Assembly (NCBI GenBank): GCA_022573895.1 | Contig: JACZTB010000031.1 | Span: 1 to 20,213, forward strand | Origin: Nitrososphaerota archaeon | Lineage (GTDB): Archaea > Thermoproteota > Nitrososphaeria > Nitrososphaerales > Nitrosopumilaceae | Length of the DNA stretch: 20,213 nt | Direction: 5' to 3' | Shown here: positions 2,578 through 20,213 of the stretch, piece after piece | How the letters are laid out: each line of letters starts with the position of its first letter | Numbering within the stretch: position 1 is the first letter of the stretch | Program-made: the position numbers and the translations under genes | Notes under the pieces: generated by a model | Seen by the model: only the letters and a program-made list of their open reading frames with translations | Database searches by the model: none | Told to the model about the DNA's origin: nothing

Positions 2578-2596
2578 AACTAGTTCAAACTATCCC

Positions 2597-2611
2597 TTTT
2601 TTCTTTTTTTT
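2597..2611 (+). terminator. Oligo-T tract (T6-C-T8) 20 nt after the stop of the acidic protein gene; archaeal-type terminator
   Basis: Sequence cccTTTTTTcTTTTTTTTg read directly. Archaeal RNA polymerase terminates at oligo-T runs (established). Confidence 0.55.
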
Positions 2612-2685
2612 GAATCCCACTTAACGAAAGTTATGGATAATTTTTCCAGAAGCAATATCTATTAGAACACTATTGATTAATCAAA

Positions 2686-3657: not shown

Positions 3658-3664
3658 TTGTGAA

Positions 3665-4061
3665 CTACCACCCAACAAGTGCGGTGGACTCTTCCTGTTT
3701 CATAGAACCCTTTGGGTTCTCCACAAGCGTTACTTCCCGCAGCTCCTGCGGTAGTTTATAGTCGGCTTTTGCCGACAGGTTTAATCCCTTGTTGAGGATG
3801 TTAATACTGGCATTGTAATCTCGATCTAAAACCAAATTACAAACATTGCACCTGTGAATCCTAACGGATAGACTTTTTGGTACCATACTACCACATCTTG
3901 AACAATCAATAGTTGCAATCATTTCTTGATACAAATCCCTTTTGAGCATATTCTACAAACTTGTTGTACACCCAACGACACACAGATAAATTATTCTGAA
4001 GTTTGTACTCTTGGGAACCATTAGGGTATAGTCTAAATTTGTAATTTCTTGTTAATACCAT
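3665..4061 (-). pseudogene. tnpB: Internally deleted, frameshifted tnpB (IS200/IS605-family OrfB/TnpB) remnant keeping only the N- and C-terminal ends
   Basis: Minus-strand translation from ATG 4061-4059 gives MVLTRNYKFRLYPNGSQEYKLQNNLSVCRWVYNKFVEYAQKGFVSRNDCNY* (stop 3908-3906), the canonical TnpB N-terminus (YKFRLYPN..Q). The overlapping 94-aa ORF 3665..3949, in a different frame, carries the C-terminal zinc ribbon (CSRCG...CNVC), the RuvC-III-like DRDYNASINI and the typical tail ...VENPKGSMKQEE. Full-length TnpB is ~400 aa; only ~130 aa equivalents remain. No tnpA in the window. Confidence 0.85.
3704..3776 (-). other. Three perfect GC-rich stem-loops inside the 3' end of the tnpB remnant (possible omega-RNA/right-end scaffold remnant)
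   Basis: AGAACCC-ttt-GGGTTCT (3704-3720), CCGCAG-ctc-CTGCGG (3737-3751), GTCGGC-tttt-GCCGAC (3761-3776). They are locally GC-rich in an AT-rich genome. TnpB guide RNAs are known to be encoded across the tnpB 3' end and transposon right end. Confidence 0.35.
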
Positions 4062-4158
4062 TACCAGAATTTGATATGGTAAACAATGTTAAATTACTTG
4101 TCATGAAAAAAACTGCAAGTCCAGCTATACCATATTTACTAGTCTTCTCGCCATAAAA

Positions 4159-4166
4159 TTATAAAT
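4159..4166 (+). promoter_or_regulatory. TATA-like box (TTATAAAT) ~26 nt upstream of the protease ATG; implies leaderless or very short-leader mRNA
   Basis: Sequence read directly. The spacing matches archaeal TATA-to-TSS distance (~25-30 nt). Confidence 0.45.
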
Positions 4167-4187
4167 GCCATAAAATAAACACAAATA

Positions 4188-7100: not shown

Positions 7101-7970
7101 ACTATTACTGTACCGCCAAAAGATGTTGCTACAGTTGATGTAACATTAGTTGCACCAACTGATCTGCAAACAGGAGTCTATCAGGGATTTCTAACTTTTG
7201 AGGGAGAAAAACATACGGTAAATGCCCCAGTATCCTTTGTTATAAAACAATTAGTTGATCAGAATGATTCTACTGTAATTATCCAAGGCAAACAAAGTGA
7301 TGATGTTCTTTATGGCAGTGGATACATCAAAGGAGCATTTGATATGGCTAATCGATACATGGCAGGAGATTGGAGACAATATTATTTTGACATTCAAGAC
7401 GAATCAATTAATTCAGCAGCGATTGAACTTTCATGGATTACTGATGATACTAATCTGGCTGTCTTTGTAACGGATCCATCGGGACAAATAGTTCAAACAA
7501 ATGTTCCATCTGGAGTGTTTGGTCATTTTCTGGGATGGCCTTCTCTTGATTGGTTAGGCAACTCTATCTTTAGTCAAGGTGGTGGATTCTTTCCTGTAAA
7601 AAATAAAGATAATACATCAACTGTTCTATATGTTCCAATTAACCAAACTGGTACTTACACTCTTTTGACACATTCAACATTATTTGGAGGAAATTCAACA
7701 ACAGAACCAATTACACTTGTAGCAAAATTCACTAACATTTCATCTCAAGATGAGTCGATAGAAACAGAGTTTGAATCAAATGATTCTATTTCAGAAGACG
7801 ACTATAACACAATCTCTAAAACAAAAACTCTTCCTGATGACTCTGTTCAAATAAATTATTCTGATAGACTTGATTCATCCTTTAGTCTTGGCATTACTCT
7901 TGGATTAATAATTGGAATTGCGATTGGAGTCATTATCATATTCATTATCAGACAAAAACATGAAGAGTAG
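4188..7970 (+). CDS. Giant extracellular, membrane-anchored subtilisin-family (S8) serine protease with TPPII-like catalytic spacing (1260 aa)
   Basis: Signal-like N-terminus (MPKVAIFISIILLSSVSTNSYA). Catalytic Asp in TTIAVIDTGVD (D153, nt 4644-4646), His in VGHGTSTAA (H419), oxyanion Asn in ISNSWG (N496), Ser in GGTSMSAPIVSG (S643). About 265 residues lie between Asp and His. About 600 aa C-terminal extension, an acidic/Ser-rich linker, then TM anchor GITLGLIIGIAIGVIIIFIIRQKHEE. Confidence 0.9.
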   Translation: MPKVAIFISIILLSSVSTNSYAIPSGDMILEEGIPKQFEFSSGIIKVDPNFFTENNFKRYLIFGANPQSSDYLKNHSSYGVRSDSGFFHVAILSENGASSLVSQGYNVIEDFKLDFHSTDLTDVSRIAQITRSDIAQKNYGVTGNGTTIAVIDTGVDFSNLDIQHSLARDDKNHPIMLDPDGQGIILTNATFFAFIDKNDIIRNYSKPIPPALTSSVYVTKQGVFLDVSQEGKGTIISIYNSFFPQLGFSVIFNGTLSEDMKIGEDNRNYIKSKSGIYHLGIIYQGSLARIQVVPVLVVDSFVSGVYDTIIPDLSTSWEDYTRFDLKQGQKPKYDFDFTDEKPIILGSGKEFLVYDSNDDGKNDYSAGTFGAQVLDVYGVIQNKTAKIDDFLMAVNGTLLPALDPDGEFFGLMTDFVGHGTSTAATITSRGIETYDIYNNTKKFTILGVAPDAKIIPVKALWFGDTVYGWLWAAGFDSVENDWKFTGKPRVDIISNSWGVSNFPSFKTSPGMDVLSLILSILVTPHSLDDDYPGVTIVSSAGNSGHGYGTIGLPTASPYGISVGATTNNVFVGYGSFKDQPRFGNSTSNYNEIVDFSSRGPSSIGDPKPDLMSIGAYGFTPSNVLKSEKDSKDESFSLFGGTSMSAPIVSGSAAILIEGMKKLSQDIDPFTIKNILMSTATDLKNDPFTQGSGLVNVSSALDYVNGQDGLFIVHNDASYLNIKKILDPAINKVNSTAIGFEKFQLPSSSIPMTSWFAGQLLPGEKSSATFTIVNPSENEITVTVTPKKLSLIAKNQFSGTTIVQQQDPIHNKTGIYIPNYVKLSDVRQHSTLAEFFDEKDPIPDDSSLMILNVNFQFDTFMNKTSDVYADDIKISSLYIYDWLDNNNDTKITSDELSMVNRAGSWGTVQELRVTDPNEKFEGTPLVGVYPVPTRYSYWLGDTKMNSTSMDYTLSASFYQKEKWSVIWLESQTITVPPKDVATVDVTLVAPTDLQTGVYQGFLTFEGEKHTVNAPVSFVIKQLVDQNDSTVIIQGKQSDDVLYGSGYIKGAFDMANRYMAGDWRQYYFDIQDESINSAAIELSWITDDTNLAVFVTDPSGQIVQTNVPSGVFGHFLGWPSLDWLGNSIFSQGGGFFPVKNKDNTSTVLYVPINQTGTYTLLTHSTLFGGNSTTEPITLVAKFTNISSQDESIETEFESNDSISEDDYNTISKTKTLPDDSVQINYSDRLDSSFSLGITLGLIIGIAIGVIIIFIIRQKHEE

Positions 7971-7980
7971 TTCATGAAGA

Positions 7981-7987
7981 TTTATAA
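7981..7987 (+). promoter_or_regulatory. TATA box TTTATAA ~30 nt upstream of the Rieske gene ATG
   Basis: Exact TTTATAA read at 7981-7987. The same heptamer sits at the same distance upstream of the cupredoxin gene. Confidence 0.55.
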
Positions 7988-8013
7988 GCAATTTGGCGTG
8001 TACGTCAGCTTGA

Positions 8014-8619
8014 ATGTTAGAGCTTGGGATAAAAAAGTCTGACGGATTATCCAGAAGGGACTTTCTAAAGTTGATGGGCGCCGCAGGCACAGGATTAGCG
8101 TTTGCTCCATTTATTCCATGGGGCAATTTCATGCCAAACCCAAGTCAGGCAACTCTTGAAAAAGTACCCGTAATCTTACCTGATGGGACTCGCGCCAATA
8201 TCAACACTTTTCCAATTAATTTCTCTGAAGTAATCACATATCCACATACTGGCGATTCTGCACTTGATGCAGAAGCATTTCGTAAATGGCAGTTCATAAG
8301 ATTACCTGAAGAATTAGGTGGTTCAAAAAGTGACATATCTGCTCTCCGAGCATACAGTATGATCTGTCTTCATCTTTGGTGCTTGTGGAAGTATTGGCCA
8401 GATGAAGGAAGAAAGAGAGGTGAATGTCCTTGTCATGGTAGTATGTATGATCCAACAACTGGAATAGCTTTTCTAGGTCCTGCATCAGTGCAAGCCCCCC
8501 CATCAAACACGTTAGCTGAATTGTATTTGGAAATTGACTCCGATGGATTTGTATTTATCTTGCCGCCAAAGTTTGATGTAAATGCTAATGGAGTAATTGG
8601 ATATGGCCGTTTCGCTTGA
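8014..8619 (+). CDS. Rieske [2Fe-2S] protein with twin-arginine (Tat) signal; complex III / b6f-like subunit
   Basis: Tat motif SRRDFLKLMGAAGTGLAFAPF. Cluster-binding boxes CLHLWC and CPCHGS. 3' end overlaps the cytochrome b start by 23 nt. Confidence 0.92.
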   Translation: MLELGIKKSDGLSRRDFLKLMGAAGTGLAFAPFIPWGNFMPNPSQATLEKVPVILPDGTRANINTFPINFSEVITYPHTGDSALDAEAFRKWQFIRLPEELGGSKSDISALRAYSMICLHLWCLWKYWPDEGRKRGECPCHGSMYDPTTGIAFLGPASVQAPPSNTLAELYLEIDSDGFVFILPPKFDVNANGVIGYGRFA

Positions 8620-10186
8620 AAGAAGAACTGGGGTAGTCTCCCTCATTTACTGGTTTTGGGATGGAATAGATAGAACAATCTTTACTGGACTCAAGTTTTC
8701 ATTCCCTTCTAGATTTGTTAGTCCGTTTGGATTCTTAGGGATGCTTACCTTTATCACATTTATCATTCTTGGAGTTACAGGAGCTCTGCTCATGTTTTAC
8801 TATCAACCTATATTGGATAGAGCTTGGGATAGTGTTCAATTCATTAATGATGTTGTTCCGTTTGGTTTTCACATTAGAAATATTCACTATCATGGTTCCA
8901 ATGCAATGGTGCTATTGGCTGTTCTTCACCTGTATTACCAATTCTTTAGTGGACGATACAAAATTAGAAATCAAGTTTTATGGATGACTGGTGTAATTCT
9001 TGGTACTGTTACTATTCTTGAAGCATTTACTGGATATGATGTTATATTTAGTGAAAGAGCAGAACTTGCAATTAGTATTGCTGCATCTCTGACGACATCA
9101 ATTCCTATAGTCGGACCGACGATTCGTGATGCGGCGCTGGGTAGTGGGTTCTCGGACTTTGTGTTAAGGTTCTATGCACAACATGTGTTCTTGTTACCAA
9201 TAGTAATGCTAGGATTGATGGCAGTTCATTTCCCAAGATTCTTGGTATTTGATGTACCTATGGTCATGGCCATTTCTGGTGCTATTCTAATCACTGGTGG
9301 TGTGTTCCCAATTGATATGGGATTCAAGTTTGAGCCGTCAGTACCGCCAGGAGTGACGGTTCCTGAATGGTATCTTACAGCAATTTATGCATTCATGAGG
9401 ACTCAGTATGACAAGTTTGTAACAGGACTGTTATGGCCTCTGATATTTATCGCCACGCTTCTGTTAATCCCGTTCATTGATAGATACAAGAAATTCTCAT
9501 GGAGAGACAGACCAATAGTTACATCATTTGGGATTACTAGCATTGCTCAGATTATGGTTACCACATATTGGGGATTCTACATTAATCCTGACGTCACGGT
9601 TCCATTAGTAGAGCGTTTGGTGATTGATCCTATATTCTTCTACTCTGTAATGATCTTGCTGGTACCTCTAGGATTTGGATTTACATACATGATGATTAAA
9701 CTTGCAAATGAAGCTGAAAGAAAAGCAAAACTTGCAAAAAGTAAAGGTCCACAGAAAGTTGCCACAATCAACCTTTCTGAAAAATGGATTAACTGGCTAC
9801 TTGTTGCTTTGTTAGCATTCCAAGTATTCCTAAACATTGCAGCATATAATGCCTCTTTGACAGGAATGAAGAACATGTCGTTATTCTTTGTTGGAATAAT
9901 CTTGTTGGTATTTGCCGCATTCTTCCATCTTTACAGATATGCTTTGAGTGCGGAAAAGAGTATGCCACCACCTCCACCTATTCCAGTACAGGAAGAACAA
10001 CCAAAGCTACCTGCAGCTGATGTATCTTCTGAACCAAGTAAACTTCCAGAAGATACTAAACCCGAAGGAAAACCGGAACCAAAAGAATTAGCTCAAGAAG
10101 TTCCTATACCAAAAGCTCAAGCAGATTTGGGAATTGGTGCAGATAACAATCCAAATCTTGATTCGAGTGATCTTAACAAACCATGA
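8597..10186 (+). CDS. Cytochrome b (fused b6 + subunit-IV-like) with extra C-terminal TM helices and a Pro/Glu/Lys-rich tail (529 aa)
   Basis: Helix-B heme ligands HYHGSNAMVLLAVLH (13 intervening residues). Helix-D pair HVFLLPIVMLGLMAVH (14 intervening residues, b6-type). Qo-site PEWY motif (VPEWYLTAIYAF) in the same polypeptide. Two further TM helices after residue ~395. Tail PPPPPIPVQEEQPKLP...PEGKPEPKE. The start could also be the ATG at 8603. Confidence 0.92.
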   Translation: MDMAVSLERRTGVVSLIYWFWDGIDRTIFTGLKFSFPSRFVSPFGFLGMLTFITFIILGVTGALLMFYYQPILDRAWDSVQFINDVVPFGFHIRNIHYHGSNAMVLLAVLHLYYQFFSGRYKIRNQVLWMTGVILGTVTILEAFTGYDVIFSERAELAISIAASLTTSIPIVGPTIRDAALGSGFSDFVLRFYAQHVFLLPIVMLGLMAVHFPRFLVFDVPMVMAISGAILITGGVFPIDMGFKFEPSVPPGVTVPEWYLTAIYAFMRTQYDKFVTGLLWPLIFIATLLLIPFIDRYKKFSWRDRPIVTSFGITSIAQIMVTTYWGFYINPDVTVPLVERLVIDPIFFYSVMILLVPLGFGFTYMMIKLANEAERKAKLAKSKGPQKVATINLSEKWINWLLVALLAFQVFLNIAAYNASLTGMKNMSLFFVGIILLVFAAFFHLYRYALSAEKSMPPPPPIPVQEEQPKLPAADVSSEPSKLPEDTKPEGKPEPKELAQEVPIPKAQADLGIGADNNPNLDSSDLNKP

Positions 10187-10207
10187 TTTCAAAAGTTCTA
10201 AACAAAC

Positions 10208-10214
10208 TTTATAA
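10208..10214 (+). promoter_or_regulatory. TATA box TTTATAA ~27 nt upstream of the cupredoxin ATG
   Basis: Exact TTTATAA read at 10208-10214; ATG at 10238. Confidence 0.55.
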
Positions 10215-10237
10215 GAACTTGAGAGTTTGAAAAAATT

Positions 10238-10699
10238 ATGAGTTCACCTACGTCGAGCCACGCGTATGGTATAGGGGTTGTTGCAATAATCATTGCAATG
10301 TCTGCCTCAATTGTATTTTACACTTCATTTTATATTCCTGAATCTTTGGCAAAGCCAACCGTAGCTGAACATATCTTAAATCCAGACACAGATTTTATTA
10401 TTGAAATTGTTCCAGGTGCAGTAATTGAAGGAAATGAAAACTATGTTCCAAACCAATCCAAAGTGTTATTGGGTATTAACAACAAAGTTATTTGGATAAA
10501 TCTGGATGATACTCCTCATACTGTAACTCCTGATCATAGAGCCTCTGATAAGTATAGTGGAGACTTTGGTTCTATAGGTGTCCTTAAACCTGGTGATTCC
10601 TTTGAATTCCTATTCACAGAGGTTCAAGAAATTCCTTATCACTGTGAACCTCATCCATGGATGACTGGAAACATTTCTATAGAACTGAGCAGATTCTAG
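10238..10699 (+). CDS. Membrane-anchored plastocyanin/amicyanin-like type-1 blue copper protein (153 aa)
   Basis: N-terminal TM (YGIGVVAIIIAMSASIVFYTSFY). Type-1 Cu ligands: His in DDTPHTVTP and C-x2-H-x3-M in YHCEPHPWMTG. Located directly after Rieske/cyt b. Confidence 0.9.
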   Translation: MSSPTSSHAYGIGVVAIIIAMSASIVFYTSFYIPESLAKPTVAEHILNPDTDFIIEIVPGAVIEGNENYVPNQSKVLLGINNKVIWINLDDTPHTVTPDHRASDKYSGDFGSIGVLKPGDSFEFLFTEVQEIPYHCEPHPWMTGNISIELSRF

Positions 10700-11046
10700 A
10701 TAGAATATTTCGCAAAAATTATTTGACTTTCAATTTCTTTATGTTGCTCAATAATTGACACTCTAAATTTTATTTCATGTTCTTGTTTTGGCTCAAATTT
10801 AATTAGTGCGGTAAATTCTGCCTTGTTTTTAGGCATTACCTCTTTGTTGATGAATAATCTTGAAACATTTTGTGAAATACTCTTTCCGTTGCATGACTTG
10901 TAGAATATGTGTTCATTTGAATCTAAAATCTGGGTATTTATCACAACTCCATCATATCTTCCTGGATATGACACAGAAATTGTTCCTCTGATTTCAGAAT
11001 TTGGATGAATGTCAGTTGAGTTTAGTGTGAATACTAAATCTTTCAT
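10696..11046 (-). CDS. Small hypothetical protein (116 aa), possibly arrestin-N/Spo0M-like beta-sandwich
   Basis: Clean ORF with ATG. The pattern LNSTDIHPNSEIRGTISVSYPGRYDGVVINTQI resembles arrestin-N/Spo0M-type strands, but this is weak and by eye only. Its stop overlaps the cupredoxin stop by 4 nt (convergent). Confidence 0.6.
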   Translation of the reverse strand: MKDLVFTLNSTDIHPNSEIRGTISVSYPGRYDGVVINTQILDSNEHIFYKSCNGKSISQNVSRLFINKEVMPKNKAEFTALIKFEPKQEHEIKFRVSIIEQHKEIESQIIFAKYSI

Positions 11047-11189
11047 GAAAACATCATCTGTAAATCAGAATAAATAATTTTGTTAAGCGGGCCCAAAGGG
11101 TTCAAGATACTAACTTGGGTCTAATTTTGGTTCCACTTTGTTCATAAAATTTTGTTTTGCGTAATCTTATAGAACCACGTAGCAACTCT

Positions 11190-11416
11190 CTGTAGCTTAA
11201 ATCTGAGCTTCTCTGGATTTAGCTTTTTAGCTCTTCAAGCTGGAACAAAAATCTGTAGCTAAACAGCTACAGATGCACTACATTAGCTGTTGTAGCTACA
11301 GTTGTCGTGCGTAGAAAGCAGCTACAAAAGAGCTACAACTACGCCTGAAAAACTACAGAAGCTGTTTTGTAGCTGTAGCTAGGCACGACACTGTAAATTG
11401 TAGCTTATAGCTACAA
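11190..11416. repeat. Dense array of GTAGCT/AGCTAC hexamers arranged mainly as dyads (non-coding)
   Basis: GTAGCT at 11192, 11255, 11293, 11369, 11375, 11400. AGCTAC at 11265, 11295, 11320, 11331, 11409. Dyads: CTGTAGCT-aaac-AGCTACAG (11253-11272), TGTAGCTACA (11291-11300), TTGTAGCT-tat-AGCTACAA (11398-11416). Tandem GTAGCTGTAGCT (11369-11380). Confidence 0.9.
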
Positions 11417-11466
11417 CTTACAAGAAGATCTACAGGAGCTTCGTTCGTAAACCTTTACGCACGACA
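11303..11466. repeat. 11-bp perfect inverted repeat TGTCGTGCGTA / TACGCACGACA enclosing part of the GTAGCT array
   Basis: Left arm 11303-11313, right arm 11456-11466 (142 bp between them). A third GCACGACA lies at 11383-11390. Confidence 0.85.
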
Positions 11467-11918
11467 GTTAGCTGAATAGCTGCGTAGTTCTAATGGAGAT
11501 TACGAAATAATACGATAGTGAATATACTTATGAAAATTTTGGATCAACCTTTTCCCCTAAATTAGTTTATTGATAATTAATAAAAATAGAACCTCCCCTC
11601 TCCCTGCTAAAAAATCACGGTTTTCTCGTTATGTTGTACGTTATGATTTGTTGGAAAAAGGTTACGGAACAAATATGGGAAACATAACAACGGATGAAAA
11701 ACAGGGATGTCCAGAAAATTGAGAACGATGGATTATAGGGCCTTTCTTCATTGATGATCTTACAATAATCAAGAGCTATGAGCCACTGGAGTGTTTTGAA
11801 CGAACTGCAATTCATCCATACGTGGAATATATCAACGGTTCCTCTGATTTTATATTGGATTAGAACTTCCTCCCATTCTCTGCAAATGTGATCTTGGTTC
11901 CTCAAGTTCTTTTCCTTC

Positions 11919-13868
11919 CTATGCCTGGGTTGTAGAAGCTTTTGGATGGCCCACTTTTCGGTGTTGCGTATCGCTGTCCAAAGGCAACAAGATATGGATC
12001 TCAGCTCCCTTATCTCTTCCCTCGGATTCCGCCCAGATCTTACCGTCATGATTTTCGATTATTCCCTTGCAAACTGATAAACCCAAACCAATTCCTCCAG
12101 TTTCTCTGGTAAGGGAGCTGTCTATTTGATAGAATTTTATAAAAATTTCATCAAGTTTTTCTTTTTGGATTCCTGCTCCATTGTCTTTCACTATCACTCT
12201 AGCGTTAAAACTGTCGGAATCAAGTTTGACGTGGATTTTACCATTTTTTTTGGTGTACTTCATAGCATTAGATATTAGATTTGATAGAACTTGTTCGATT
12301 CTAGTTTTGTCACACGAACAGAAAATATTTTCTTGCAGATCCGTGGTGATAGAAATGTTTTGTTTTTTCGCAATAGTCTTCATATTTGTGGCTGTCACGG
12401 TGATAATTTTAGACAAATCATAGATCTTCTTATCTAATTTCAACTGACCAAGTTCTATTTTTTGAGCATCCAAAAGATCTGAAACAAGCCTCAGAAGTGA
12501 ATCGGTATTTGATTTTACTACATTAAGTATTTTTCGTTGTTCCTCTTTGATGCTGCCAAACTTTCCTGATAGAACCATATCAGTATAACTTTTTATCGGA
12601 ACTAACGGAGTTCTCAATTCATGTGAGGTCATATACAAGAATTCAGATTTTGCCGAGTCCAATTTTTTAAGTTCTTCATATTGTTTTATTATGGTCCTTT
12701 GCTTTTCTTGTAGCGCTTTTTGTGCGTTGTACATTTCTGTGATGTCTCTAATGATGGTATTGCTACCAATTAACTTGCCACTGTCATCATAGAGATTGTT
12801 TGCACTAATTAGAGTTGGAAAAGTAGTCCCATCTTTTCTCCTTAATCTAACTTCCCTATTTAATATACGTCCTGTCTTTTTCCACGTTTCAAATGAGTCA
12901 CGCATCTCGGATTCTCCTTCTTTAGAGATATGCTCAAAGATTGATTTGCCAATTATCTCTTCCTTGGTGTAACCCAAGTGTTCGGCATAGGATTTGTTAC
13001 AGTTAAGGATAATTCCTTCTTTATTGATGGTACGGTACAGATCCGGTGAATTCTCGTATAAGCTTCTATATCTTCTTTCAATCTCTTCGATTTGTGAAAT
13101 GTTTTTGATTACTGTGTTACTTCCAATAAGTGTACCATCTTCATTATACAGACTTGTTGCACTTATTAGCACGGGAAATGAAGTTCCGTCTTTTCTCATT
13201 AGCCTAGACTTGTGAGTTGGGACTCTTCCTGTCTTTTTCCATTCCTCAAATAATTTGTGCGTTGGTTCAAGGCTTCTTTCACTACAAAAGTCAAAAATTG
13301 ATTTTCCGATTATTTCTTCCTTTGAATATCCCAGTTCCTGAGCATACTTTTTGTTACAATCAATAATTATTCCATTTGTATTTATGCTACGATGAAGATC
13401 CGGTGATCCCTCATACAAGCTTCTAAATTTTCTTTCAGTCTGTCGGAGTTCGGAGATATCTCTAATGATGGTATTGCTACCAATTAACTTGCCACTGCCA
13501 TCATAGAGATTGTTTGCACTAATTAGAGTTGGAAAAGTAGTCCCATCTTTTCTCATTAGCGAAATTTCCATGCTGGAAACTGTTCCCCCTTTCTTCCACT
13601 CATCAAAAGATTTACGTAATGCTAGCAGACTTTGTTCTGCGACGTGTTCAAATATTGATTTGCCAATAACTTCTTTTTTCGAATAGCCCAGATTCTTTGC
13701 ATAGGATTTGTTGCAGACAACAATTATTCCGTCTGTATTTATTGTTCGGTAAAGATCGGGAGACTCGTTGTAAAGGTTCATGTATATTTGAAATAACGGA
13801 TGACTTTCACCTTGTACTTTTTTTGTTATCTCTTTCTCTGAGAAATTCACCGACATCCCTGTCTCCAT
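11919..13868 (-). CDS. Cytoplasmic sensor histidine kinase with three tandem PAS domains (649 aa)
   Basis: Three repeats of YRSLYExSPDLYRxIN..GII..CNK.YA..LGY.KEE.IGKSIF ... RKDGT.FP.LISA..LY...G.LIGSNT.I.(D/N)IS. H-box MTSHELRTPL, N-box LSNLISNAMKYT, G1 VKDNGAGI, G2 GGIGLGLSVCKG. No TM segment. No response regulator in the window. Confidence 0.92.
   Translation of the reverse strand: METGMSVNFSEKEITKKVQGESHPLFQIYMNLYNESPDLYRTINTDGIIVVCNKSYAKNLGYSKKEVIGKSIFEHVAEQSLLALRKSFDEWKKGGTVSSMEISLMRKDGTTFPTLISANNLYDGSGKLIGSNTIIRDISELRQTERKFRSLYEGSPDLHRSINTNGIIIDCNKKYAQELGYSKEEIIGKSIFDFCSERSLEPTHKLFEEWKKTGRVPTHKSRLMRKDGTSFPVLISATSLYNEDGTLIGSNTVIKNISQIEEIERRYRSLYENSPDLYRTINKEGIILNCNKSYAEHLGYTKEEIIGKSIFEHISKEGESEMRDSFETWKKTGRILNREVRLRRKDGTTFPTLISANNLYDDSGKLIGSNTIIRDITEMYNAQKALQEKQRTIIKQYEELKKLDSAKSEFLYMTSHELRTPLVPIKSYTDMVLSGKFGSIKEEQRKILNVVKSNTDSLLRLVSDLLDAQKIELGQLKLDKKIYDLSKIITVTATNMKTIAKKQNISITTDLQENIFCSCDKTRIEQVLSNLISNAMKYTKKNGKIHVKLDSDSFNARVIVKDNGAGIQKEKLDEIFIKFYQIDSSLTRETGGIGLGLSVCKGIIENHDGKIWAESEGRDKGAEIHILLPLDSDTQHRKVGHPKASTTQA
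12745..12840. repeat. Intragenic 96-bp repeat copy A (PAS3), 95/96 identical to 13459-13554
   Basis: tctctaatgatggtattgctaccaattaacttgccactgTcatcatagagattgtttgcactaattagagttggaaaagtagtcccatcttttctc. Offset to copy B is exactly 714 nt (238 codons). Flanks diverge sharply. Confidence 0.9.
13459..13554. repeat. Intragenic 96-bp repeat copy B (PAS1)
   Basis: Same sequence as 12745-12840 except C at 13498 versus T at 12784 (Gly versus Asp in LYD(G/D)SGK). Confidence 0.9.
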
Positions 13869-13914
13869 GAAATACTACTTGTTATCTTCGTCTCTAAATC
13901 GAACGACTTTATCC

Positions 13915-13932
13915 GGGGGGGGGGGGGGGGGG
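13915..13932. repeat. G18 homopolymer (C18 on the kinase coding strand) 47-64 nt upstream of the kinase start codon
   Basis: Counted directly: atcc + 18 G + ttctc. It lies in the divergent intergenic region between the kinase (-) and the 14141 gene (+). Confidence 0.9.
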
Positions 13933-14140
13933 TTCTCAAAAACCAAATTAACAATTTTCTCCATTCATTTTGTTTCTATCATAATAATAAGAAGAATGGA
14001 AATTTTAACTCAATTGATGTACCAAATTGGCCATTTGAATGACTTTTGTAGAGCTGTTAACGCACTTCATAATCATTACTAAGATTACGCAAGAAAGATT
14101 TGATGTTACTAAAAAGTTAATTTTCTAGTAGAATGACTAC

Positions 14141-14638
14141 GTGTTATTGAAGAGGGCTGTCATAATTCTTGGATTTATCCTTTCATTAGGAATAGTTGTT
14201 AGTCTTTCATTTTATGCATCCGCAGAATCCCTTATTCCATCTTGGATAAAAAATACAGCTGGGTTTTGGGTTGATGATCAAATTAGTGATTCAGAGTTTA
14301 TAGCTGCATTACAATTTCTTGTAAAAGAAGGAATCTTGATGATTCCACAACCAGTTGAGGAAAAACAAGAACAACAGAGTGGATTTAGTAATACGAATTG
14401 TCGCAAAGATCTCACTGGGTTTGTAACAATGACTGGTAAATTTACAAATGGTCAAACACCTGCTTCTCAAATATACTTCATATTAGGAGTGCTTGATGCT
14501 GATGGGGCTGTGTTAGCCACAGGTATTGGGGTTATTTCCAATGTTGAGGCTTATCAAACAAAACTCTTTGAAGCTACTGCTGCATATACTGGACCATTTA
14601 CTAAATGTGAAATTCAAGTCTCAGATGTTTTTCGATAG
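14141..14638 (+). CDS. Small secreted/membrane-anchored protein (165 aa), GTG start
   Basis: N-terminal TM/signal (AVIILGFILSLGIVVSLSFYASA), then the motif IPSWIKNTAGFWVDDQISDSEFIAALQFLVKEGILMIP, which I recall as recurrent in thaumarchaeal secreted proteins (memory only). C-terminal ~85 aa beta-rich domain with two Cys. The start is GTG at 14141; the nearby ATG at 14133 is out of frame. Confidence 0.7.
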   Translation: MLLKRAVIILGFILSLGIVVSLSFYASAESLIPSWIKNTAGFWVDDQISDSEFIAALQFLVKEGILMIPQPVEEKQEQQSGFSNTNCRKDLTGFVTMTGKFTNGQTPASQIYFILGVLDADGAVLATGIGVISNVEAYQTKLFEATAAYTGPFTKCEIQVSDVFR

Positions 14639-14644
14639 CTATTC

Positions 14645-14680
14645 TATCTTTCGTAATCTGTACTAGGATTACGAAAGATA
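14645..14680. terminator. Perfect 14-bp stem / 8-nt loop hairpin 7 nt after the stop of the 14141..14638 gene; founding member of a dispersed hairpin family
   Basis: TATCTTTCGTAATC-tgtactag-GATTACGAAAGATA read directly. A half-copy TACTAAGATTACGcaagAAAGAT lies upstream of the same gene (14078-14099). Confidence 0.6.
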
Positions 14681-14888
14681 TTATGAATTTGGAATAATTT
14701 TTAATAGAACAATCTTCAGATTCCTTTGAATGGGATCGCAAAATCCGTTTGATTCGTTACCTAATCTGCAAGTTCTAACCGATGAACCAGATGAAAAACC
14801 AACTACAGATTTTGATAATATCAGTAAATTAATTGCAGGTTTGATGAATGCAAACCAGAGATCAATCACTTTTTGACTAAAATTTGAA

Positions 14889-14929
14889 ATTTGTAATATA
14901 TCTTAACACTGCTTTTTTTATTGAATAAC
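14889..14929. repeat. Direct repeat copy 1 (~41 bp); also contains the 10-bp inverted repeat AATTTGTAAT (14888-14897) / ATTACAAATT (14930-14939)
   Basis: atttgtaatatatcttaacactgctttttttattgaataac. Compare copy 2 at 15040-15082 (about 5 differences including a 1-nt indel). Confidence 0.8.
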
Positions 14930-15039
14930 ATTACAAATTAACTATCGTATTTTTAACTGATAACCCCGATTTTGGTTTCAAAATGAATTAAGGTCTTTTA
15001 CACATGTCTTTTTATGTATTAAACCACTTGGCACGAATG

Positions 15040-15082
15040 ATTTTGTAATATACCTTAACCATGCTTTTTTTAATTGAATAAT
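15040..15082. repeat. Direct repeat copy 2 (~43 bp), ~55 nt downstream of the stop of the 15139..15819 (-) gene
   Basis: attttgtaatataccttaaccatgctttttttaattgaataat. Confidence 0.8.
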
Positions 15083-15138
15083 CCTTTTAAAAAAAATATT
15101 TGTATTTTCTATTCAAAATTTCATTTGATGCGAAAAAT

Positions 15139-15819
15139 TCAAACCTTGTTTAATTCATCAAAAATTTTTCTAATATAATCGTCATGATTAGAAACAAATT
15201 TTTCAACTTTTGATTTGTCTTTATTTCTGTATACTGTCATGACATCAAAAGTTTTTTCTGAACTTCGGGCTGCAGGTTGAATATTAATATCAAACCAGTC
15301 ACTACTCTGTATTTTTTTATCAGATGAGTATATGTGAAAACCATAATTTAAAACAGGTTCTTGGATTATGTTTTTTATTTTTTCATTTAGGTTTCCCTCT
15401 GGTTTGATTTTTCCTAATCTTTCCATTGGATTTTCACCAGTTTCGATAGCATAATTTGACAATAATTCGTAAAAAATGGCATTTTCATCAATTGTGGGTT
15501 CTATTGAAGTCTTGACAATATCTAATATCTCCAAAAAAACATTAATTGATTCATTAAGATCACTTCCATCAACCCCAATAACTTGTGGAAGGGAATCAAA
15601 TTGTATAGCCACATTCCCTTTTTTACCGATTATCCCATTCCAATCTAATGATACACCAATTGGAGTAGGTCCTGTTTTTGGAGGAGGTATTAAGACATAA
15701 TCCATCTTGGTTCGAGCTAAAGCATTTTGAAGATCACCAGTAACAAATGGAAATATAACGTATCTATAACGAACAGATAGCCTGTTTCTTTTTGCAGTAA
15801 TTTTGAATTCTTGAGACAT
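15139..15819 (-). CDS. Hypothetical protein (226 aa), no recognisable domain; second gene of the HTH operon
   Basis: Clean ORF with ATG, 11-nt gap after the upstream HTH gene. Soluble, mixed alpha/beta-looking sequence. No catalytic motif I can name. Confidence 0.7.
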   Translation of the reverse strand: MSQEFKITAKRNRLSVRYRYVIFPFVTGDLQNALARTKMDYVLIPPPKTGPTPIGVSLDWNGIIGKKGNVAIQFDSLPQVIGVDGSDLNESINVFLEILDIVKTSIEPTIDENAIFYELLSNYAIETGENPMERLGKIKPEGNLNEKIKNIIQEPVLNYGFHIYSSDKKIQSSDWFDINIQPAARSSEKTFDVMTVYRNKDKSKVEKFVSNHDDYIRKIFDELNKV

Positions 15820-15830
15820 CGTGCATCAAA

Positions 15831-16577
15831 CTAAACTGAAGTTTCTTGGTATTCTATTTTTCTTGGTAAATTCGCTGCCGCTAGACCAATATACATTCTT
15901 GAGCTAATGTCTTCATCAGAAAGGAGTGGCATAGAAAGTATTTGTTTATTTAATTCGTCGTGAACATCTTGTACTATATCTAGTGGTAAGTTACCCCGCT
16001 CTGTTAATTCTTCAAGACTATGTGGAAAAGTAGGATAAATCCAGGAAGCAACCATTTGAGGTATCAACATTCTCATGGCAGTATATTCCAATAGAATTGT
16101 TTGTTGTGGTATCCAGTGAAAATTTTTTGATTTTGCAAAATCGTTCATTGTTAAGAATAGCTTGTTTACTTCTAAATCACGATTTTTGTAGATAAGCCCA
16201 GCATATTCCTTTACCATATTTTCGAATATCCTGACAGTTTTGAGATATTCATCTTCATCCTTTGCATCGAATGATTGTTCGTACAAAGTTGACAGATAAG
16301 ACATCAAAGTTTCTGAACTAGAATTATACAATTTATCAGTAAGATAATAGAAAGTTTCTAGAGGTAATTTTTCAATTAATGTTTCCAAAACTTTTACCTT
16401 AGTAGAATGTTTTACATCTTCTTTACGAGCTCTCCAGCCATAAACAGATGCTTTAGCAATGCCACATTCTGCTGCTGTTGGCTCAAGTTTATTCCCAAAT
16501 TCTTTTTGTAATTTATCAAATAGGTGGGCCGTCCCCTCAGAATCCAGGTAATTTGCATATTTTTCTATATACTTCAT
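15831..16577 (-). CDS. Helix-turn-helix DNA-binding protein with ~180-aa unknown C-terminal domain (248 aa)
   Basis: HTH-like segment LEPTAAECGIAKASVYGWRARK (aa ~31-52). The rest is helical and unrecognised. The start codon lies 7 nt from a 24-bp perfect palindrome. Confidence 0.7.
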   Translation of the reverse strand: MKYIEKYANYLDSEGTAHLFDKLQKEFGNKLEPTAAECGIAKASVYGWRARKEDVKHSTKVKVLETLIEKLPLETFYYLTDKLYNSSSETLMSYLSTLYEQSFDAKDEDEYLKTVRIFENMVKEYAGLIYKNRDLEVNKLFLTMNDFAKSKNFHWIPQQTILLEYTAMRMLIPQMVASWIYPTFPHSLEELTERGNLPLDIVQDVHDELNKQILSMPLLSDEDISSRMYIGLAAANLPRKIEYQETSV

Positions 16578-16583
16578 TATACT

Positions 16584-16607
16584 AACCGTATAGTATACTA
16601 TACGGTT
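16584..16607. promoter_or_regulatory. Perfect 24-bp palindrome AACCGTATAGTA|TACTATACGGTT in the divergent promoter region; candidate operator overlapping TATA-like sequence
   Basis: Checked by hand: the reverse complement of aaccgtatagta is tactatacggtt. It covers -7 to -30 relative to the HTH gene ATG (16577) and itself contains TATAGTATA/TATACTATA. Confidence 0.6.
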
Positions 16608-16663
16608 TGGTCTTTAATATATAATTTTTAGGATATATTTGAGTAAGCACATTTCTTACCCTA

Positions 16664-17458
16664 TTGAGTCAGACATGCTCTCATCGTGATGGCATACTAG
16701 TCGATACTAAACCTAGTGGATTGATTAGTTTGAGAAATGCAATTTTAGATTTAATTAGAAAATATCTTTGTCCTAACGCCGATCAGGTTAATCCTCCCAC
16801 TTTTGTAAATTTGCAAATTACTCAACCATTCAAAACACAGTATACTAGTCCTGCTGAAGAATTAATTCTTGAAATTGACGCAATGAGTTTGTTCAGACAC
16901 ACTGGAATAACAGATTTTGAAACACGTGGATGTTATAAACCAAGCGACGGAAAAATATATTTAGTAAGGAACAAGTGGTGTTTAGAAACATTAATTCATG
17001 AAACTCTACATGCATGTTCAATAAACTCCCAAGATCCTGAATTAAAAAGATATGAACAATTATTTGATGGTTTAACTGAATTTTTTACTGGGTACATTTT
17101 ATTTCAGGAATTCAAACAATGTTATACGGATTGTTTTTCATCATTTGACCAACAATGTAGTATGACATATCATAATTATACAAAATTATGGATTGCACTT
17201 TGTAATTTTGTTTCACTAAAAAATGTTATAGGAATTTACTTTCCCACCGATAAACTCTGGGATGATGAAGTTAAAGAGTTTGTTAATAGAATAAAAAATC
17301 TAGGATTTGATAAATTCAGTAATCCATTTGGTAGAGCTGGTTTAGATAGTATAACACGATTTAGAATTATTTGTGATAAGACATTTGGCAATTCATATGA
17401 CGATATTTGTGAGCATTACAAACTTTATTCTGACTTTAGTAAAGTTAATGACACATGA
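16664..17458 (+). CDS. Putative zincin-fold metallopeptidase-like protein with HExxH motif (264 aa, Cys-rich); start codon uncertain (TTG)
   Basis: GKIYLVRNKWCLETLIHETLHAC, with HETLH at aa 112-116 (nt 16997-17011). This resembles the 'I.L....L..tLlHExxH' context of SprT/WLM/ImmA-like minimal metalloproteases. Possible third ligand Glu in YEQLFDGLTEFF. 11 Cys. There is no in-frame ATG near the 5' end; the ORF track starts at TTG 16664. Confidence 0.6.
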   Translation: MSQTCSHRDGILVDTKPSGLISLRNAILDLIRKYLCPNADQVNPPTFVNLQITQPFKTQYTSPAEELILEIDAMSLFRHTGITDFETRGCYKPSDGKIYLVRNKWCLETLIHETLHACSINSQDPELKRYEQLFDGLTEFFTGYILFQEFKQCYTDCFSSFDQQCSMTYHNYTKLWIALCNFVSLKNVIGIYFPTDKLWDDEVKEFVNRIKNLGFDKFSNPFGRAGLDSITRFRIICDKTFGNSYDDICEHYKLYSDFSKVNDT

Positions 17459-17568
17459 TTATTTAGAAAATACCTATTACACAAAATTTAGATTTCATTT
17501 TTTCAATAATTGAAGATATTTTTTATATGCAGGAAAATCAGTTGTACTTATTTTAAACAATTTTTTTA

Positions 17569-17589
17569 TAATCTTAGATAGGACTATGA
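17569..17589. repeat. 21-bp repeat TAATCTTAGATAGGACTATGA (degenerate member of the hairpin family), 76 nt downstream of the 417-aa gene
   Basis: 20/21 identical to 19022-19042. The loop ttagatag is identical. Confidence 0.8.
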
Positions 17590-17665
17590 GACCAAACGAG
17601 TTTATTGATAAAGAGTAAAAAGTCAATCCCCCCTTTCACGAATAAAAAATCCATTATGACTAGCG

Positions 17666-18919
17666 TTATGATGTAGTGGAAAGTACATCTGTTAGATATG
17701 ATACAATAGTAAATATTGTTGAAATTACAGTTGCTATAATTTGCCAATTCTCTTTAATCCTTGTGGTTAATGAAATATGAATTAAAAATTTTGAAGTATC
17801 AGATACTTGTATCTTATTTTGAATAGAAGCTAAAAGTTCCAATTTATTGTCTTTTTCAAGATATTTTACAAAATTATGTGCAAGATCGGTAAGATGCTTT
17901 GAATCATAATTCACACAGGTTGATTTAATCTCATCCAATCTATTAATATTCAAATTAGTATTTTTCTTAACGACATTTTCATAATAATTTAATCCCATAA
18001 GCAGGTATTTTCTTTTAGTCATTTGATCAAGGTCTTTGAATCTTCTAACGATGATAAAACATCCTTTGGCACTAAGATAATAAAAATCAGAAAATTTGGT
18101 TAATGTGTACTTAAATGGAAAAATCATGTATGCCATTACTACTGGAATTAACCAAACAAATATCAGAAATTCAATGAATGTATTATTTGAAATTTCATCA
18201 ATAAACGGAAACGGTTTTAATTGTTCTAATTCCTTTAGAAGTGTTTTTTTTAACTCATCATAATTCATTTCATTATATTTGTTATGTAGTAAATTTCTTC
18301 GATCTAAATCATTATCTATCCTCCATAAGATTTCATTTCCAGGTTGATGGAATTCTGCAAATGTTGCATTTTCATTCCTTTCAAGTAATTCATTTCCAAA
18401 TAGAGTAACAATCCTTCGATCTACTTGTAAGGTGCTCATTTCTAAAATTTGTTCATGAAAATAATTACGTAATTCATCTTCTGTCAAGCCATATGTTTTT
18501 TTAATTTTGTTTTCATATTCACTTTGTTGAGAATTATATTGTTCCATTAATTGTTGCTTATCAGATATTGTTAAGAATATCCCAATGCCTACTAAGATAC
18601 TAATTATAATTAATGTTACCATAGAATATTTTTGGAGTTTTTCTAAGTACTCGAACCTAATTATTGCTCTTTCAAATGTTAAAGCTTTAAAAAATTTTGA
18701 TTTTTCTCTTTTACGGAAAAATTTTTTTTCATAAATTAGCAAAAATATTACTATGTATGAAAGAGGAACTGACCAGACATAAACTGGTAAATTGTTACCT
18801 GTTTCATTTGAATATATTATTACTAATACAGCATAAAGTATCGTTGGTAATATCAATCCCAGAAAACTAGCAAGTCTTAATTCTTTTGAAAGGATTTCAC
18901 TGAATTCATCTTGACTCAT
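17666..18919 (-). CDS. Multi-pass membrane protein of unknown function (417 aa)
   Basis: Predicted TM helices by eye: ASFLGLILPTILYAVLVIIY, LPVYVWSVPLSYIVIFLLIY, YSMVTLIIISILVGIGIFLTI, FIEFLIFVWLIPVVMAYMIFPF and C-terminal WQIIATVISTIFTIVSYLTDVL. Charged helical soluble segments lie between them. Very AT-rich. Confidence 0.7.
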   Translation of the reverse strand: MSQDEFSEILSKELRLASFLGLILPTILYAVLVIIYSNETGNNLPVYVWSVPLSYIVIFLLIYEKKFFRKREKSKFFKALTFERAIIRFEYLEKLQKYSMVTLIIISILVGIGIFLTISDKQQLMEQYNSQQSEYENKIKKTYGLTEDELRNYFHEQILEMSTLQVDRRIVTLFGNELLERNENATFAEFHQPGNEILWRIDNDLDRRNLLHNKYNEMNYDELKKTLLKELEQLKPFPFIDEISNNTFIEFLIFVWLIPVVMAYMIFPFKYTLTKFSDFYYLSAKGCFIIVRRFKDLDQMTKRKYLLMGLNYYENVVKKNTNLNINRLDEIKSTCVNYDSKHLTDLAHNFVKYLEKDNKLELLASIQNKIQVSDTSKFLIHISLTTRIKENWQIIATVISTIFTIVSYLTDVLSTTS

Positions 18920-19019
18920 ATTTTTTTAATTAATTATATCCTCATAAAGATTGAGATTATTCATTGTAACTTATAATAAATGAGAAATAATTCAAAGAAA
19001 TAGGCAAAGAATCAATCAT

Positions 19020-19042
19020 CGTAATCTTAGATAGGATTATGA
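19020..19042. repeat. Hairpin-family copy CGTAATC-ttagatag-GATTATG, 10 nt downstream of the 169-aa gene stop and ~100 nt upstream of the 417-aa gene start
   Basis: Read directly. The 10-mer CGTAATCTTA is shared with 11160-11169, and the arms with 14652-14673. Confidence 0.8.
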
Positions 19043-19052
19043 ATTCAGAATA

Positions 19053-19562
19053 TCACTTAAAATGAAAATCCCACATATGAGGATCTGAGTTTTTTAGAAA
19101 TTTTTTGTGTCTTTGAACTTGTTTTAGTTTGATATGTTTTACACATTCGTCACAAGCTCCAAAATCAGGATTTACTGATTTTTTTAAATCCAACCAAATA
19201 GGTTTGAATTTGCTACGAAACTTTTCTGCACGGTTGGGATTTTCTGAATTTGTATCGTAGTATTCTTTAACTAAATCGTAAAGTTCTCGTGTTTTTTCAT
19301 ACGTGTACAAATGTTGTAAAACCCTTTTTCCTGTTAATTTGTCATGATTAAATACTATCCAAATAGCATTAGAATATAAGCTCGAAGTTCTCATCATGCT
19401 GTTAAAAAAATCCAGTAATGGTTCTATCTCTTTTCGATAATCATCTCTAAAAAAATATTTTTTATCATGTTGCTTGTTCCGAACATTCCATAATAGACTT
19501 AATGATCCTATAACTACACCAGCTAACGCAATGTAAAATATAGGATCTTCATAGAATTCCAT
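19053..19562 (-). CDS. N-terminally membrane-anchored hypothetical protein (169 aa)
   Basis: Single TM PIFYIALAGVVIGSLSLLWNV followed by a basic/helical soluble domain. CDEC..H near the C-terminus. Confidence 0.65.
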   Translation of the reverse strand: MEFYEDPIFYIALAGVVIGSLSLLWNVRNKQHDKKYFFRDDYRKEIEPLLDFFNSMMRTSSLYSNAIWIVFNHDKLTGKRVLQHLYTYEKTRELYDLVKEYYDTNSENPNRAEKFRSKFKPIWLDLKKSVNPDFGACDECVKHIKLKQVQRHKKFLKNSDPHMWDFHFK

Positions 19563-19613
19563 CTAAATCAAAAACTGAGGTTTTGTTAATAATGTTGACG
19601 ATTAATTTTAATG

Positions 19614-19633
19614 TGTAATCCATAGTAATTACG
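19614..19633. repeat. Degenerate hairpin-family copy TGTAATC-catagta-ATTACG, ~25 nt downstream of the 19656 gene stop
   Basis: GTAAT (19615-19619) pairs with ATTAC (19628-19632). It is followed by AATATT, as in GATTACGAAAGATATT at 14667-14682. Confidence 0.55.
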
Positions 19634-19655
19634 AATATTTGGCAAAAATAGAATT

Positions 19656-20213
19656 TTATTCCATTGAATATCCAGTCAGATCCTGATGTTCACTTTGAAG
19701 ATTTTGAAATTCGGTTTGTGCTATTTGTTCCATTTCTGATAAATCAAATAATTGGTACCAATCATCTTCTTGTGTTTTTGAAGCTAAATACAATTCCTTG
19801 TCATTTTTAATTAAATTTTGGAAATTTTCAATCAATTTTAAAGAAAAGAGGTATCGATACTTTTGGAATGTTTCAAGTAATTTATCCCGATCTTGAGGAA
19901 TTATTAGGAGGTGAGACTTATTTTCTGAATTCTTGCCAAAGTTGTTTCCTCTTGATTTTGAAGACTGAAGAAAATTTAACAAAGTGCCATAAGCTTCTAA
20001 TCTTTTTTCAATTGTTTGTAATTTAGCATTATTTTTCCATTTTTGAGGTTCTAATTTTTTTTCTTTGTAGAGTAAGAATGCGATGACAATAGAACCCGAT
20101 ACAACAGCTGCCACTATCGCACTATCTATAGGAAAACCTTCCTGGGTTTGTTCTGGTTCATCTTGTTGTGCAGCAAAAGCAATGAATAGGAATAGCATTG
20201 GGGTAATTATCAT
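19656..20213 (-). CDS. Membrane-anchored hypothetical protein (>=185 aa); may be truncated at the window edge
   Basis: The ATG is the last three bases of the window, so the true start may lie outside. Signal-like MIITPMLFLFIAFAAQQ, short acidic segment, TM IVAAVVSGSIVIAFLLY, then a helical soluble domain with loose resemblance to the 169-aa neighbour (IEKRLEAYGTLLNFLQSS versus IEPLLDFFNSMMRTS). Confidence 0.6.
   Translation of the reverse strand: MIITPMLFLFIAFAAQQDEPEQTQEGFPIDSAIVAAVVSGSIVIAFLLYKEKKLEPQKWKNNAKLQTIEKRLEAYGTLLNFLQSSKSRGNNFGKNSENKSHLLIIPQDRDKLLETFQKYRYLFSLKLIENFQNLIKNDKELYLASKTQEDDWYQLFDLSEMEQIAQTEFQNLQSEHQDLTGYSME

Follow-up and report, generated by a model that had tools for sequence, protein, structure and literature searches.

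Do three genes arranged around a perfect palindrome in a Nitrososphaerota archaeon form a regulatory switch in which a metallopeptidase lifts the repression exerted by a DNA-binding protein? The question is raised by contig JACZTB010000031.1 (GenBank assembly GCA_022573895.1; Nitrosopumilaceae), of which the 20,213 nucleotides analyzed are called the window below. On its minus strand, a two-gene operon encodes a 248-aa protein with an N-terminal Xre-type helix-turn-helix (HTH), the presumptive regulator and first gene (15831..16577), followed after an 11-nt gap by a 226-aa protein (15139..15819) with a predicted two-repeat fold resembling the TATA-binding protein (TBP), the proposed cargo or output. 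A third open reading frame (ORF), transcribed divergently from the plus strand (16664..17458), encodes a Cys-rich protein of 264 aa from an unannotated family, a candidate zincin-like metallopeptidase; its TTG start is supported by the orthologues, whose ATG, GTG or TTG starts align exactly with it. The divergent spacer between the HTH and 264-aa genes measures 86 bp (16578-16663) and contains a perfect 24-bp palindrome. The original prediction had described these ORFs, the gap, the spacer, the palindrome and the Cys-rich HExxH protein, all of which were confirmed, and had likened the module to the bacterial ImmR/ImmA and CapH/CapP systems. From the evidence set out below, and by analogy with those systems, we tentatively read the cassette, with slightly less than even confidence, as an HTH operon that represses itself until a protease inactivates the repressor and so releases the cargo.

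Loci for comparison were drawn from public assemblies, a GTDB genome scan and a metagenome scan seeded with the operator, and were screened with hidden Markov models of the families. The protease gene adjoined a gene of the same HTH family in all 21 of the 21 distinct loci, which came from Nitrosopumilaceae, Bathyarchaeia and unplaced archaea. Its hosts include ammonia oxidizers and archaea of sediments. The full trio was found with the same layout in 14 loci, the cargo and HTH genes on one strand and the protease gene divergent from them. The co-occurrence that had been proposed as a check on the module was thus found across two archaeal classes.

At the other loci an unrelated gene lay 3' of the HTH gene, often overlapping it. 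The second-gene slot was occupied by at least four unrelated genes, each with tight or translational coupling to the HTH gene. In loci L140 (3579-4205, minus strand) and L141 (4152-4778, minus strand), which carry a distant version of the cassette, the second gene encodes an archaeal COMM-domain protein. It matched Pfam COMM_domain with E=2.1e-5 and 25.0 bits, above the 22.4 cut-off, and COMM_HN with E=0.003; the same two domains make up eukaryotic COMMD/Commander subunits. The second gene of L018 (4168-4818, minus strand) encodes a 216-223-aa protein, and that of L049 (3043-3468, plus strand) and L093 (2104-2529, minus strand) a conserved 141-aa helical protein whose gene overlaps the HTH stop codon; neither product matched Pfam or resembled the TBP-like family. 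Because unrelated genes take the place of the 226-aa gene in L140, L018, L049 and L093 while the HTH gene, operator and protease gene persist, the earlier designation of the second gene as the regulated cargo has gained support.

Two contigs of a single Bathyarchaeota metagenome-assembled genome (MFD03726.bin.2.171), compared as L003/L014:330-761 (minus strand) and L015, bear near-identical protease and downstream genes. One of these contigs has a broken HTH gene, reduced to a 137-aa fragment, and an altered operator, which may represent a decaying copy or strain variation.

The HTH assignment of the 248-aa protein, made at first by eye, was upheld by profile comparison. Family profiles matched HipB(Lp) of Legionella (8ezt_A) over residues 14-75, with E=0.0025 from alignment A2 and 5.9e-4 from alignment A6, and matched the Xre antitoxin 4pu3_D weakly. 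Sub-threshold Pfam HTH matches occurred in many family members (HTH_28 in 8 of 19; HTH_8 with a best E of 1.9e-4). As judged by these matches, the 248-aa protein is an Xre/HipB-type HTH protein. It consists of the HTH (residues ~15-75), a helical middle domain and a C-terminal tail of variable length. The middle domain also matched yeast Rif2 weakly by profile (E about 1e-3), which was judged unlikely to be meaningful.

In alignment A6 the tail, comprising the last ~40 residues, is of low complexity and holds a conserved island, T-A-[AGST]-[NTS]-[LI] (TAANL, TAGTL, TMATL), which may be a docking or cleavage motif. The entire tail, present in the protease-linked copies, is absent from the only HTH copy found without a protease. 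This is the solo 209-aa HTH gene of L036 (2764-3393, plus strand), which has an operator upstream at 2698-2713 and no protease gene opposite. Several of the Bathyarchaeia HTH proteins terminate in GGAT or GGTT.

The candidate operator, AACCGTATAGTATACTATACGGTT, is the perfect 24-bp palindrome at 16584..16607 and extends from -7 to -30 relative to the start codon of the HTH gene. No other perfect palindrome in the 20-kb window is as long, the runner-up measuring 14 bp, and palindrome arms of 12 nt were reached in 2 of 1000 Markov-1 simulations of the window. When its 18-nt core was searched with up to 3 mismatches, this site was the sole occurrence in the window, and 100 shuffles gave 0 occurrences. 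Orthologous palindromes, such as CATATAGTATACTATATG, CGTATAGTACACTATACG and TGTGTAGTATACTACACA, stand at the equivalent position in the complete loci, and the consensus across loci, YRTRTAGTRYACTAYAYR, was found beside the HTH gene in nearly all of them. In Nitrosopumilaceae the site takes the form C[GA]TATAGT[AG][TC]ACTATA[CT]G, in Bathyarchaeia that of TGTGTAGTATACTACACA or variants of it, and in L140 that of ATGTATAGTGTACTATACAT; it is divergent in L017 and L018 and not evident in L142. Substitutions are often symmetric, altering both half-sites, and a degenerate pattern of the operator occurred exactly once per locus, always at the HTH gene. The operator-like role that had been assigned to the palindrome from its geometry is consistent with this conservation.

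A wider operator regulon was considered and dropped. Matches to the operator 16-mer GTATAGTATACTATAC were found at at least 120 metagenome loci (L020-L139), with cassette genes at 4 of 120. They give no evidence for such a regulon because they are mostly (TAGTA)n/(TACTA)n simple-repeat junctions unrelated to the cassette, and the 16-nt core alone is non-specific.

Two AT-rich boxes, TTTAATATATAA and GGATATATTT (16612..16640), are candidate TATA boxes, the former for the HTH operon on the minus strand and the latter for the protease gene on the plus strand. An alignment of 8 Nitrosopumilaceae control regions showed that both boxes hold a conserved position and that the regions share a common order: the HTH start codon, 6-8 nt, the operator, 6-10 nt, the first AT-rich box, ~10 nt, the second AT-rich box, ~22-30 nt and the protease start codon. 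In Bathyarchaeia a TATATAAG box lies ~20 nt upstream of the protease ATG, and the operator abuts this presumed TATA box of the protease gene. The boxes are candidate promoters on the grounds of archaeal promoter geometry, the TATA box of archaeal promoters being situated ~26 nt upstream of the transcription start site. By the same geometry, the operator would span the start site of the HTH operon and lie upstream of the protease promoter.

The product of the divergent gene contains the motif WCLETLIHETLHAC and 11 Cys. It has 32 close homologues, and a search of 1.8 billion representatives gave 155 family clusters at 50% identity, the members of which are all single-domain proteins of ~250-290 aa. 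Across 68 diverse members of the family, H112 and H116 never vary, and C106, E113, L115, S119, E135, G143 and C165 are conserved in at least 90%. The codons of the HExxH motif, H112-E113-T-L-H116, occupy 16997..17011 on the plus strand and those of D135-G-L-T-E139 occupy 17066..17080 on the same strand. Position 135 is Glu in at least 90% of the family and Asp in the protein of the window. It follows H116 by exactly 18 residues and is, from the gluzincin HExxH-x18-E pattern, the candidate third zinc ligand; E139 is one helical turn beyond.

A confident AlphaFold2 (AF2) model of the 264-aa protein (predicted local distance difference test, pLDDT, 86.5; predicted template-modelling score, pTM, 0.86) places, in order, an N-terminal helix, a five-stranded sheet, the HExxH helix (107-118) and a helix (125-149) bearing position 135 and E139, followed by an all-helical C-terminal half (151-255). 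The HExxH and the conserved Glu of a gluzincin motif are therefore on consecutive predicted helices. This modelled order of secondary structure agrees with the zincin-like metallopeptidase (MPTase) core described by Iyer et al. (PMC5512222), namely helix, beta-sheet, HExxH helix and Glu helix. The only significant sequence link was between the profile of alignment A4 and the virion RNA polymerase gp50 of phage N4 (residues ~2144-2239; E=5.6e-5 to 1e-4); it takes in the N-terminal helix, sheet and HExxH helix. The matched region of the N4 polymerase is the C1 subdomain, which has a conserved HExxH (PMC13434306) and was unified with the zincin-like MPTases by Iyer et al. (PMC5512222).

Pfam zincin matches in the 68 members (Tox-MPTase4, SprT-like, DUF6782 and MPTase-PolyVal) were all below threshold, the last in 1 of 68 members with E=0.058. 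The original prediction had placed the protein in a SprT, WLM or ImmA-like context. The zincin-like part of that claim stands, by virtue of the invariant His residues with the motif Glu, the Glu 18 residues on, the helix order and the N4 C1 profile link. Membership by sequence in ImmA/IrrE/CapP (M78) or in SprT/WLM does not, and the fold searches yielded weak zincin matches only. We conclude that the 264-aa protein founds a new stand-alone zincin-like family that is outside M78 by sequence. Among close members of the family C180 and C237 are invariant. Together with C106 and C165 they might form a second metal site or provide redox or 'cysteine-switch'-like control, the latter having been described for some CapP proteins.

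The 226-aa protein, in which no domain had been recognized by eye, belongs to a family of at least 19 members with 42-78% identity. In its AF2 model (pLDDT 81.3, pTM 0.79) a beta-alpha-beta(3-4)-alpha unit occurs twice in tandem. The best Foldseek match was the TBP of P. woesei (1ais_A; E=5.8e-4, probability 0.99, TM-scores 0.34/0.41), and further matches were to TBPs of human, yeast and M. jannaschii (among them 8iue_U and 2z8u; probability 0.89-0.99). TM-scores against the TBPs were only 0.31-0.44, with a root-mean-square deviation of ~10 Å, and ACT-domain proteins and McrD were likewise among the matches. TBP (PF00352) was absent from the Pfam matches of 17 family members even at E<=10. A profile search of the family against PDB sequences returned no TBP, leaving the family with no sequence similarity in Pfam or the PDB, and hhalign detected no similarity between the two halves and no internal repeat signal. 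Because the TM-scores are low, other folds are among the matches, sequence similarity is absent and the halves are dissimilar, we use the label 'TBP-like fold' and not TBP; the model suggests a weak link by structure alone. The known non-TBP members of the TBP-domain superfamily have a single TBP domain (Brindefalk et al. 2013, PMC3597702), so a bipartite non-TBP member of the kind suggested by the model would be unusual if real.

If these parts work together as we propose, a dimer of the 248-aa protein would bind the palindromic operator, as its geometry and conservation suggest. Binding would shut off the regulator's own bicistronic operon because the operator lies between an AT-rich promoter box and the HTH start codon. 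The 264-aa protein, to judge from its motif, would be an active zincin-type metallopeptidase. Upon a stress or invader signal, and by analogy with ImmA/ImmR, IrrE/DdrO and CapP/CapH, it would cleave or otherwise inactivate the repressor, probably in its C-terminal part. The operon would then be derepressed and more of the co-operonic cargo would be made, here the protein with the TBP-like fold and in other lineages whichever product fills the exchangeable slot. That the cargo acts by binding nucleic acids or transcription factors is a guess. A bolder version, which we rate as highly improbable, is a switch that is widespread and archaea-specific, in which the stand-alone zincin cleaves the Xre-type repressor and unleashes a bipartite TBP-fold protein upon the basal transcription machinery. 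This protein would rival TBP at TATA boxes or titrate transcription factor B (TFB), so that transcription is shut off or reprogrammed on virus attack or stress, with other lineages using other effectors, including the COMM-domain protein.

The systems that suggest this logic are pairs of COG2856 and XRE proteins, and we compared the cassette with ImmA/ImmR (ICEBs1 and phage phi105), IrrE/DdrO (Deinococcus) and CapP/CapH (regulators of CBASS, the anti-phage signaling systems built on cyclic oligonucleotides, and of other defence operons). Like them, it pairs the gene of an Xre-type HTH repressor with that of an HExxH zinc metallopeptidase (Lau et al. preprint; PMC12828697), has a palindromic operator within its divergent promoter region, is accompanied by a variable cargo, and is found in variable genome regions, often near defence genes. 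By analogy the cassette looks like an archaeal counterpart of the bacterial XRE-repressor/metalloprotease switches. The differences are substantial. The cassette protease has no Peptidase_M78/COG2856 match, and its ligand spacing is HExxH-x18-E versus x28 in CapP. CapP and IrrE consist of an N-terminal zinc peptidase, an HTH-like linker and a C-terminal GAF sensor (Lau et al. preprint), whereas the cassette protease has neither linker-HTH nor GAF domain and its C-terminal half is helical and Cys-rich. The HTH and protease genes are divergent in the cassette and co-directional in the COG2856/XRE pairs, the cargo is inside the HTH operon and not across the promoter, and the host range, unlike that of the bacterial pairs, is archaeal.

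The nearest detectable relative of the cassette protease is instead the MPTase domain of phage and plasmid 'polyvalent proteins' (phage N4 gp50 C1; Pfam MPTase-PolyVal). It shares with N4 gp50 C1 the core order of helix, beta-sheet, HExxH helix and Glu helix (PMC5512222). Unlike polyvalent proteins, the cassette proteases stand alone at ~265 aa and are not domains of giant injected proteins, and their context is an HTH partner, not a virion or conjugation protein. A further parallel is offered by the three-component Xre / COG2856 / toxin modules that Makarova et al. are said to have predicted in 2009 in surveys of type II toxin-antitoxin systems. Like these, the cassette combines an HTH gene, a metalloprotease gene and a variable third gene in a compact unit that moves between contexts; unlike them, it has a protease of another family, a third gene with no toxin signature and a divergent orientation. 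The switch logic is known; its novelty lies in the families of the proteins, in the archaeal host range, in the divergence of the genes and in the position of the cargo in the repressor operon. The cargo folds, TBP-like and COMM-domain, were unexpected.

Several observations weigh against a protease-relieved repressor. A Foldseek search of the 264-aa model against the PDB returned nothing significant, IrrE appearing at rank 4 with E=1.8. Against BFVD the top matches were enriched in PolyVal, 'zincin protease', IrrE-N-terminal-like and SprT-like proteins, none with E<=1e-3. Pfam gave the 264-aa protein no match at E<=1, to Peptidase_M78/COG2856 (MEROPS M78, PF06114) or otherwise, PF06114 was absent from the Pfam matches of the 68 diverse members at E<=0.1, and NCBIfam and PADLOC gave none either. 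The AF2 model has no alpha/beta GAF-like domain corresponding to the GAF sensor of IrrE/CapP. In Nitrosopumilaceae the operator is upstream of, not over, the predicted protease promoter, so that the protease gene may not be under operator control. At L015, L017 and L140 the neighbours are purely housekeeping genes, with no defence or mobile genes nearby; the L140 cassette is situated between primase/GINS and ribosomal protein L44e/eIF2-alpha genes, and that of L017 is flanked by housekeeping peptidases. Finally, because the protease is the divergent gene, in an order unlike that of the known systems, it may simply be the regulated target.

This last point leads to the strongest competing explanation, a plain divergent regulator-target pair, in which the HTH protein controls the metallopeptidase gene and itself while the peptidase has other substrates (peptides, the cargo protein or proteins of invaders) and leaves the regulator uncleaved. 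Divergent genes with a shared operator are the classic layout for such a pair, and the abutment of the Bathyarchaeia operator on the TATA box of the protease gene, the placement of the protease outside M78 with no recognizable sensor domain, and the housekeeping peptidases beside the cassette in L017 all fit it. It leaves unexplained, however, why the HTH gene is always accompanied by a second gene that is exchangeable and translationally coupled to it, and why the tail is absent from the only protease-less HTH protein. The 21/21 pairing over deep divergence is also tighter than that of most local regulators. On balance we regard this explanation as unlikely.

The genes flanking the cassette differ at every locus, and restriction or defence neighbours were present in about 5 of 13 loci. 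Defence- or mobile-type neighbours include GmrSD and type I restriction-modification genes (L001), an AAA_15/AAA_21 ATPase (L004), an HNH protein (L007), an MmeI-like enzyme (L008), and ResIII with a tyrosine integrase next to the cassette (L013). The suggested link to defence or mobile genes therefore holds at some loci and fails at several others, which are flanked by housekeeping genes. In the window the module sits in a low-GC part (0.30 for 14001-20213 versus 0.38 for 1-14000), in agreement with the low-GC ORFan setting noted at the outset. Scans of the three proteins with Pfam, PADLOC, PHROGs and NCBIfam returned nothing at a meaningful level, and nothing usable for the neighbours; PADLOC-DB v2 gave zero matches at E<=1 for the three proteins and two neighbours.

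Such surroundings might suggest a toxin-antitoxin or abortive-infection-like module, a small selfish or defence unit in which the zincin or the cargo is toxic and the HTH protein, alone or with the second protein, is antitoxin and autorepressor. The cassette is indeed compact and self-contained, with unrelated flanks at every locus, a low-GC ORFan stretch in the window and restriction or defence neighbours in the proportion given above. Family members have weak, sub-threshold Pfam matches to Tox-MPTase4, and the swapping of the second gene resembles toxin shuffling. The Tox-MPTase4 matches are, however, far below threshold, PADLOC gave no match, the proposed toxin is on the opposite strand, unlike typical type II toxin-antitoxin operons, and some loci are embedded in core housekeeping regions. 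We therefore consider a module of this kind distinctly unlikely.

Least probable of all is that the cassette is the immunity or repressor region of an integrated virus or mobile element, an archaeal analogue of ICEBs1 immR-immA with the low-GC genes to its right as the element: low-GC ORFans do extend from ~14 kb to the window end, a tyrosine integrase adjoins the cassette in L013 and the logic equals that of ImmR/ImmA (Lau et al. preprint), but none of the three families was found in the viral contigs of IMG/VR, the protease and the TBP-like protein (the two families searched) had no match in the INPHARED phage genomes, the flanks are not conserved, several loci have housekeeping genes on both sides, and the window contains no integrase, tRNA or att-like repeat. 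These searches lend a viral or proviral origin no support.

The remainder of the window was also surveyed. To the right of the module (17666-20213, minus strand) there is a run of very low-GC (0.26-0.29) ORFan genes, including a membrane-protein-like 417-aa ORF and ORFs of 169 and 185 aa with no family match; these ORFans are not kept beside the cassette at other loci. The left part (4188-10699, plus strand, and 11919-13868, minus strand) carries ordinary chromosomal genes, among them those for a 1260-aa subtilase with an Fn3-like domain, a Rieske protein with a twin-arginine translocation (TAT) signal, cytochrome b, a plastocyanin-like copper protein and a triple-PAS histidine kinase. A 94-aa ORF at 3665-3949 (minus strand) matches the Cas12f1-like/TnpB TNB domain with E=1.2e-9 and is probably a TnpB remnant.

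Repressor/metalloprotease switches (ImmR/ImmA, DdrO/IrrE and CapH/CapP) are a major means in bacteria of linking stress to the induction of mobile elements, to DNA repair and to the expression of immune genes. No archaeal counterpart was found in the literature searched, and the three families described here are unannotated. Should the proposed switch prove true, it would provide a first handle on inducible gene control in ammonia-oxidizing archaea and Bathyarchaeia, in which there is almost no genetics, and its defined operator/repressor pair would be usable as a tool. A second bipartite protein with a TBP fold, if confirmed, would bear on the evolution of the TBP domain. If the switch is real, the list of cargo proteins (TBP-fold, COMM-domain and others) would likewise be one of candidate new stress or defence effectors of archaea.

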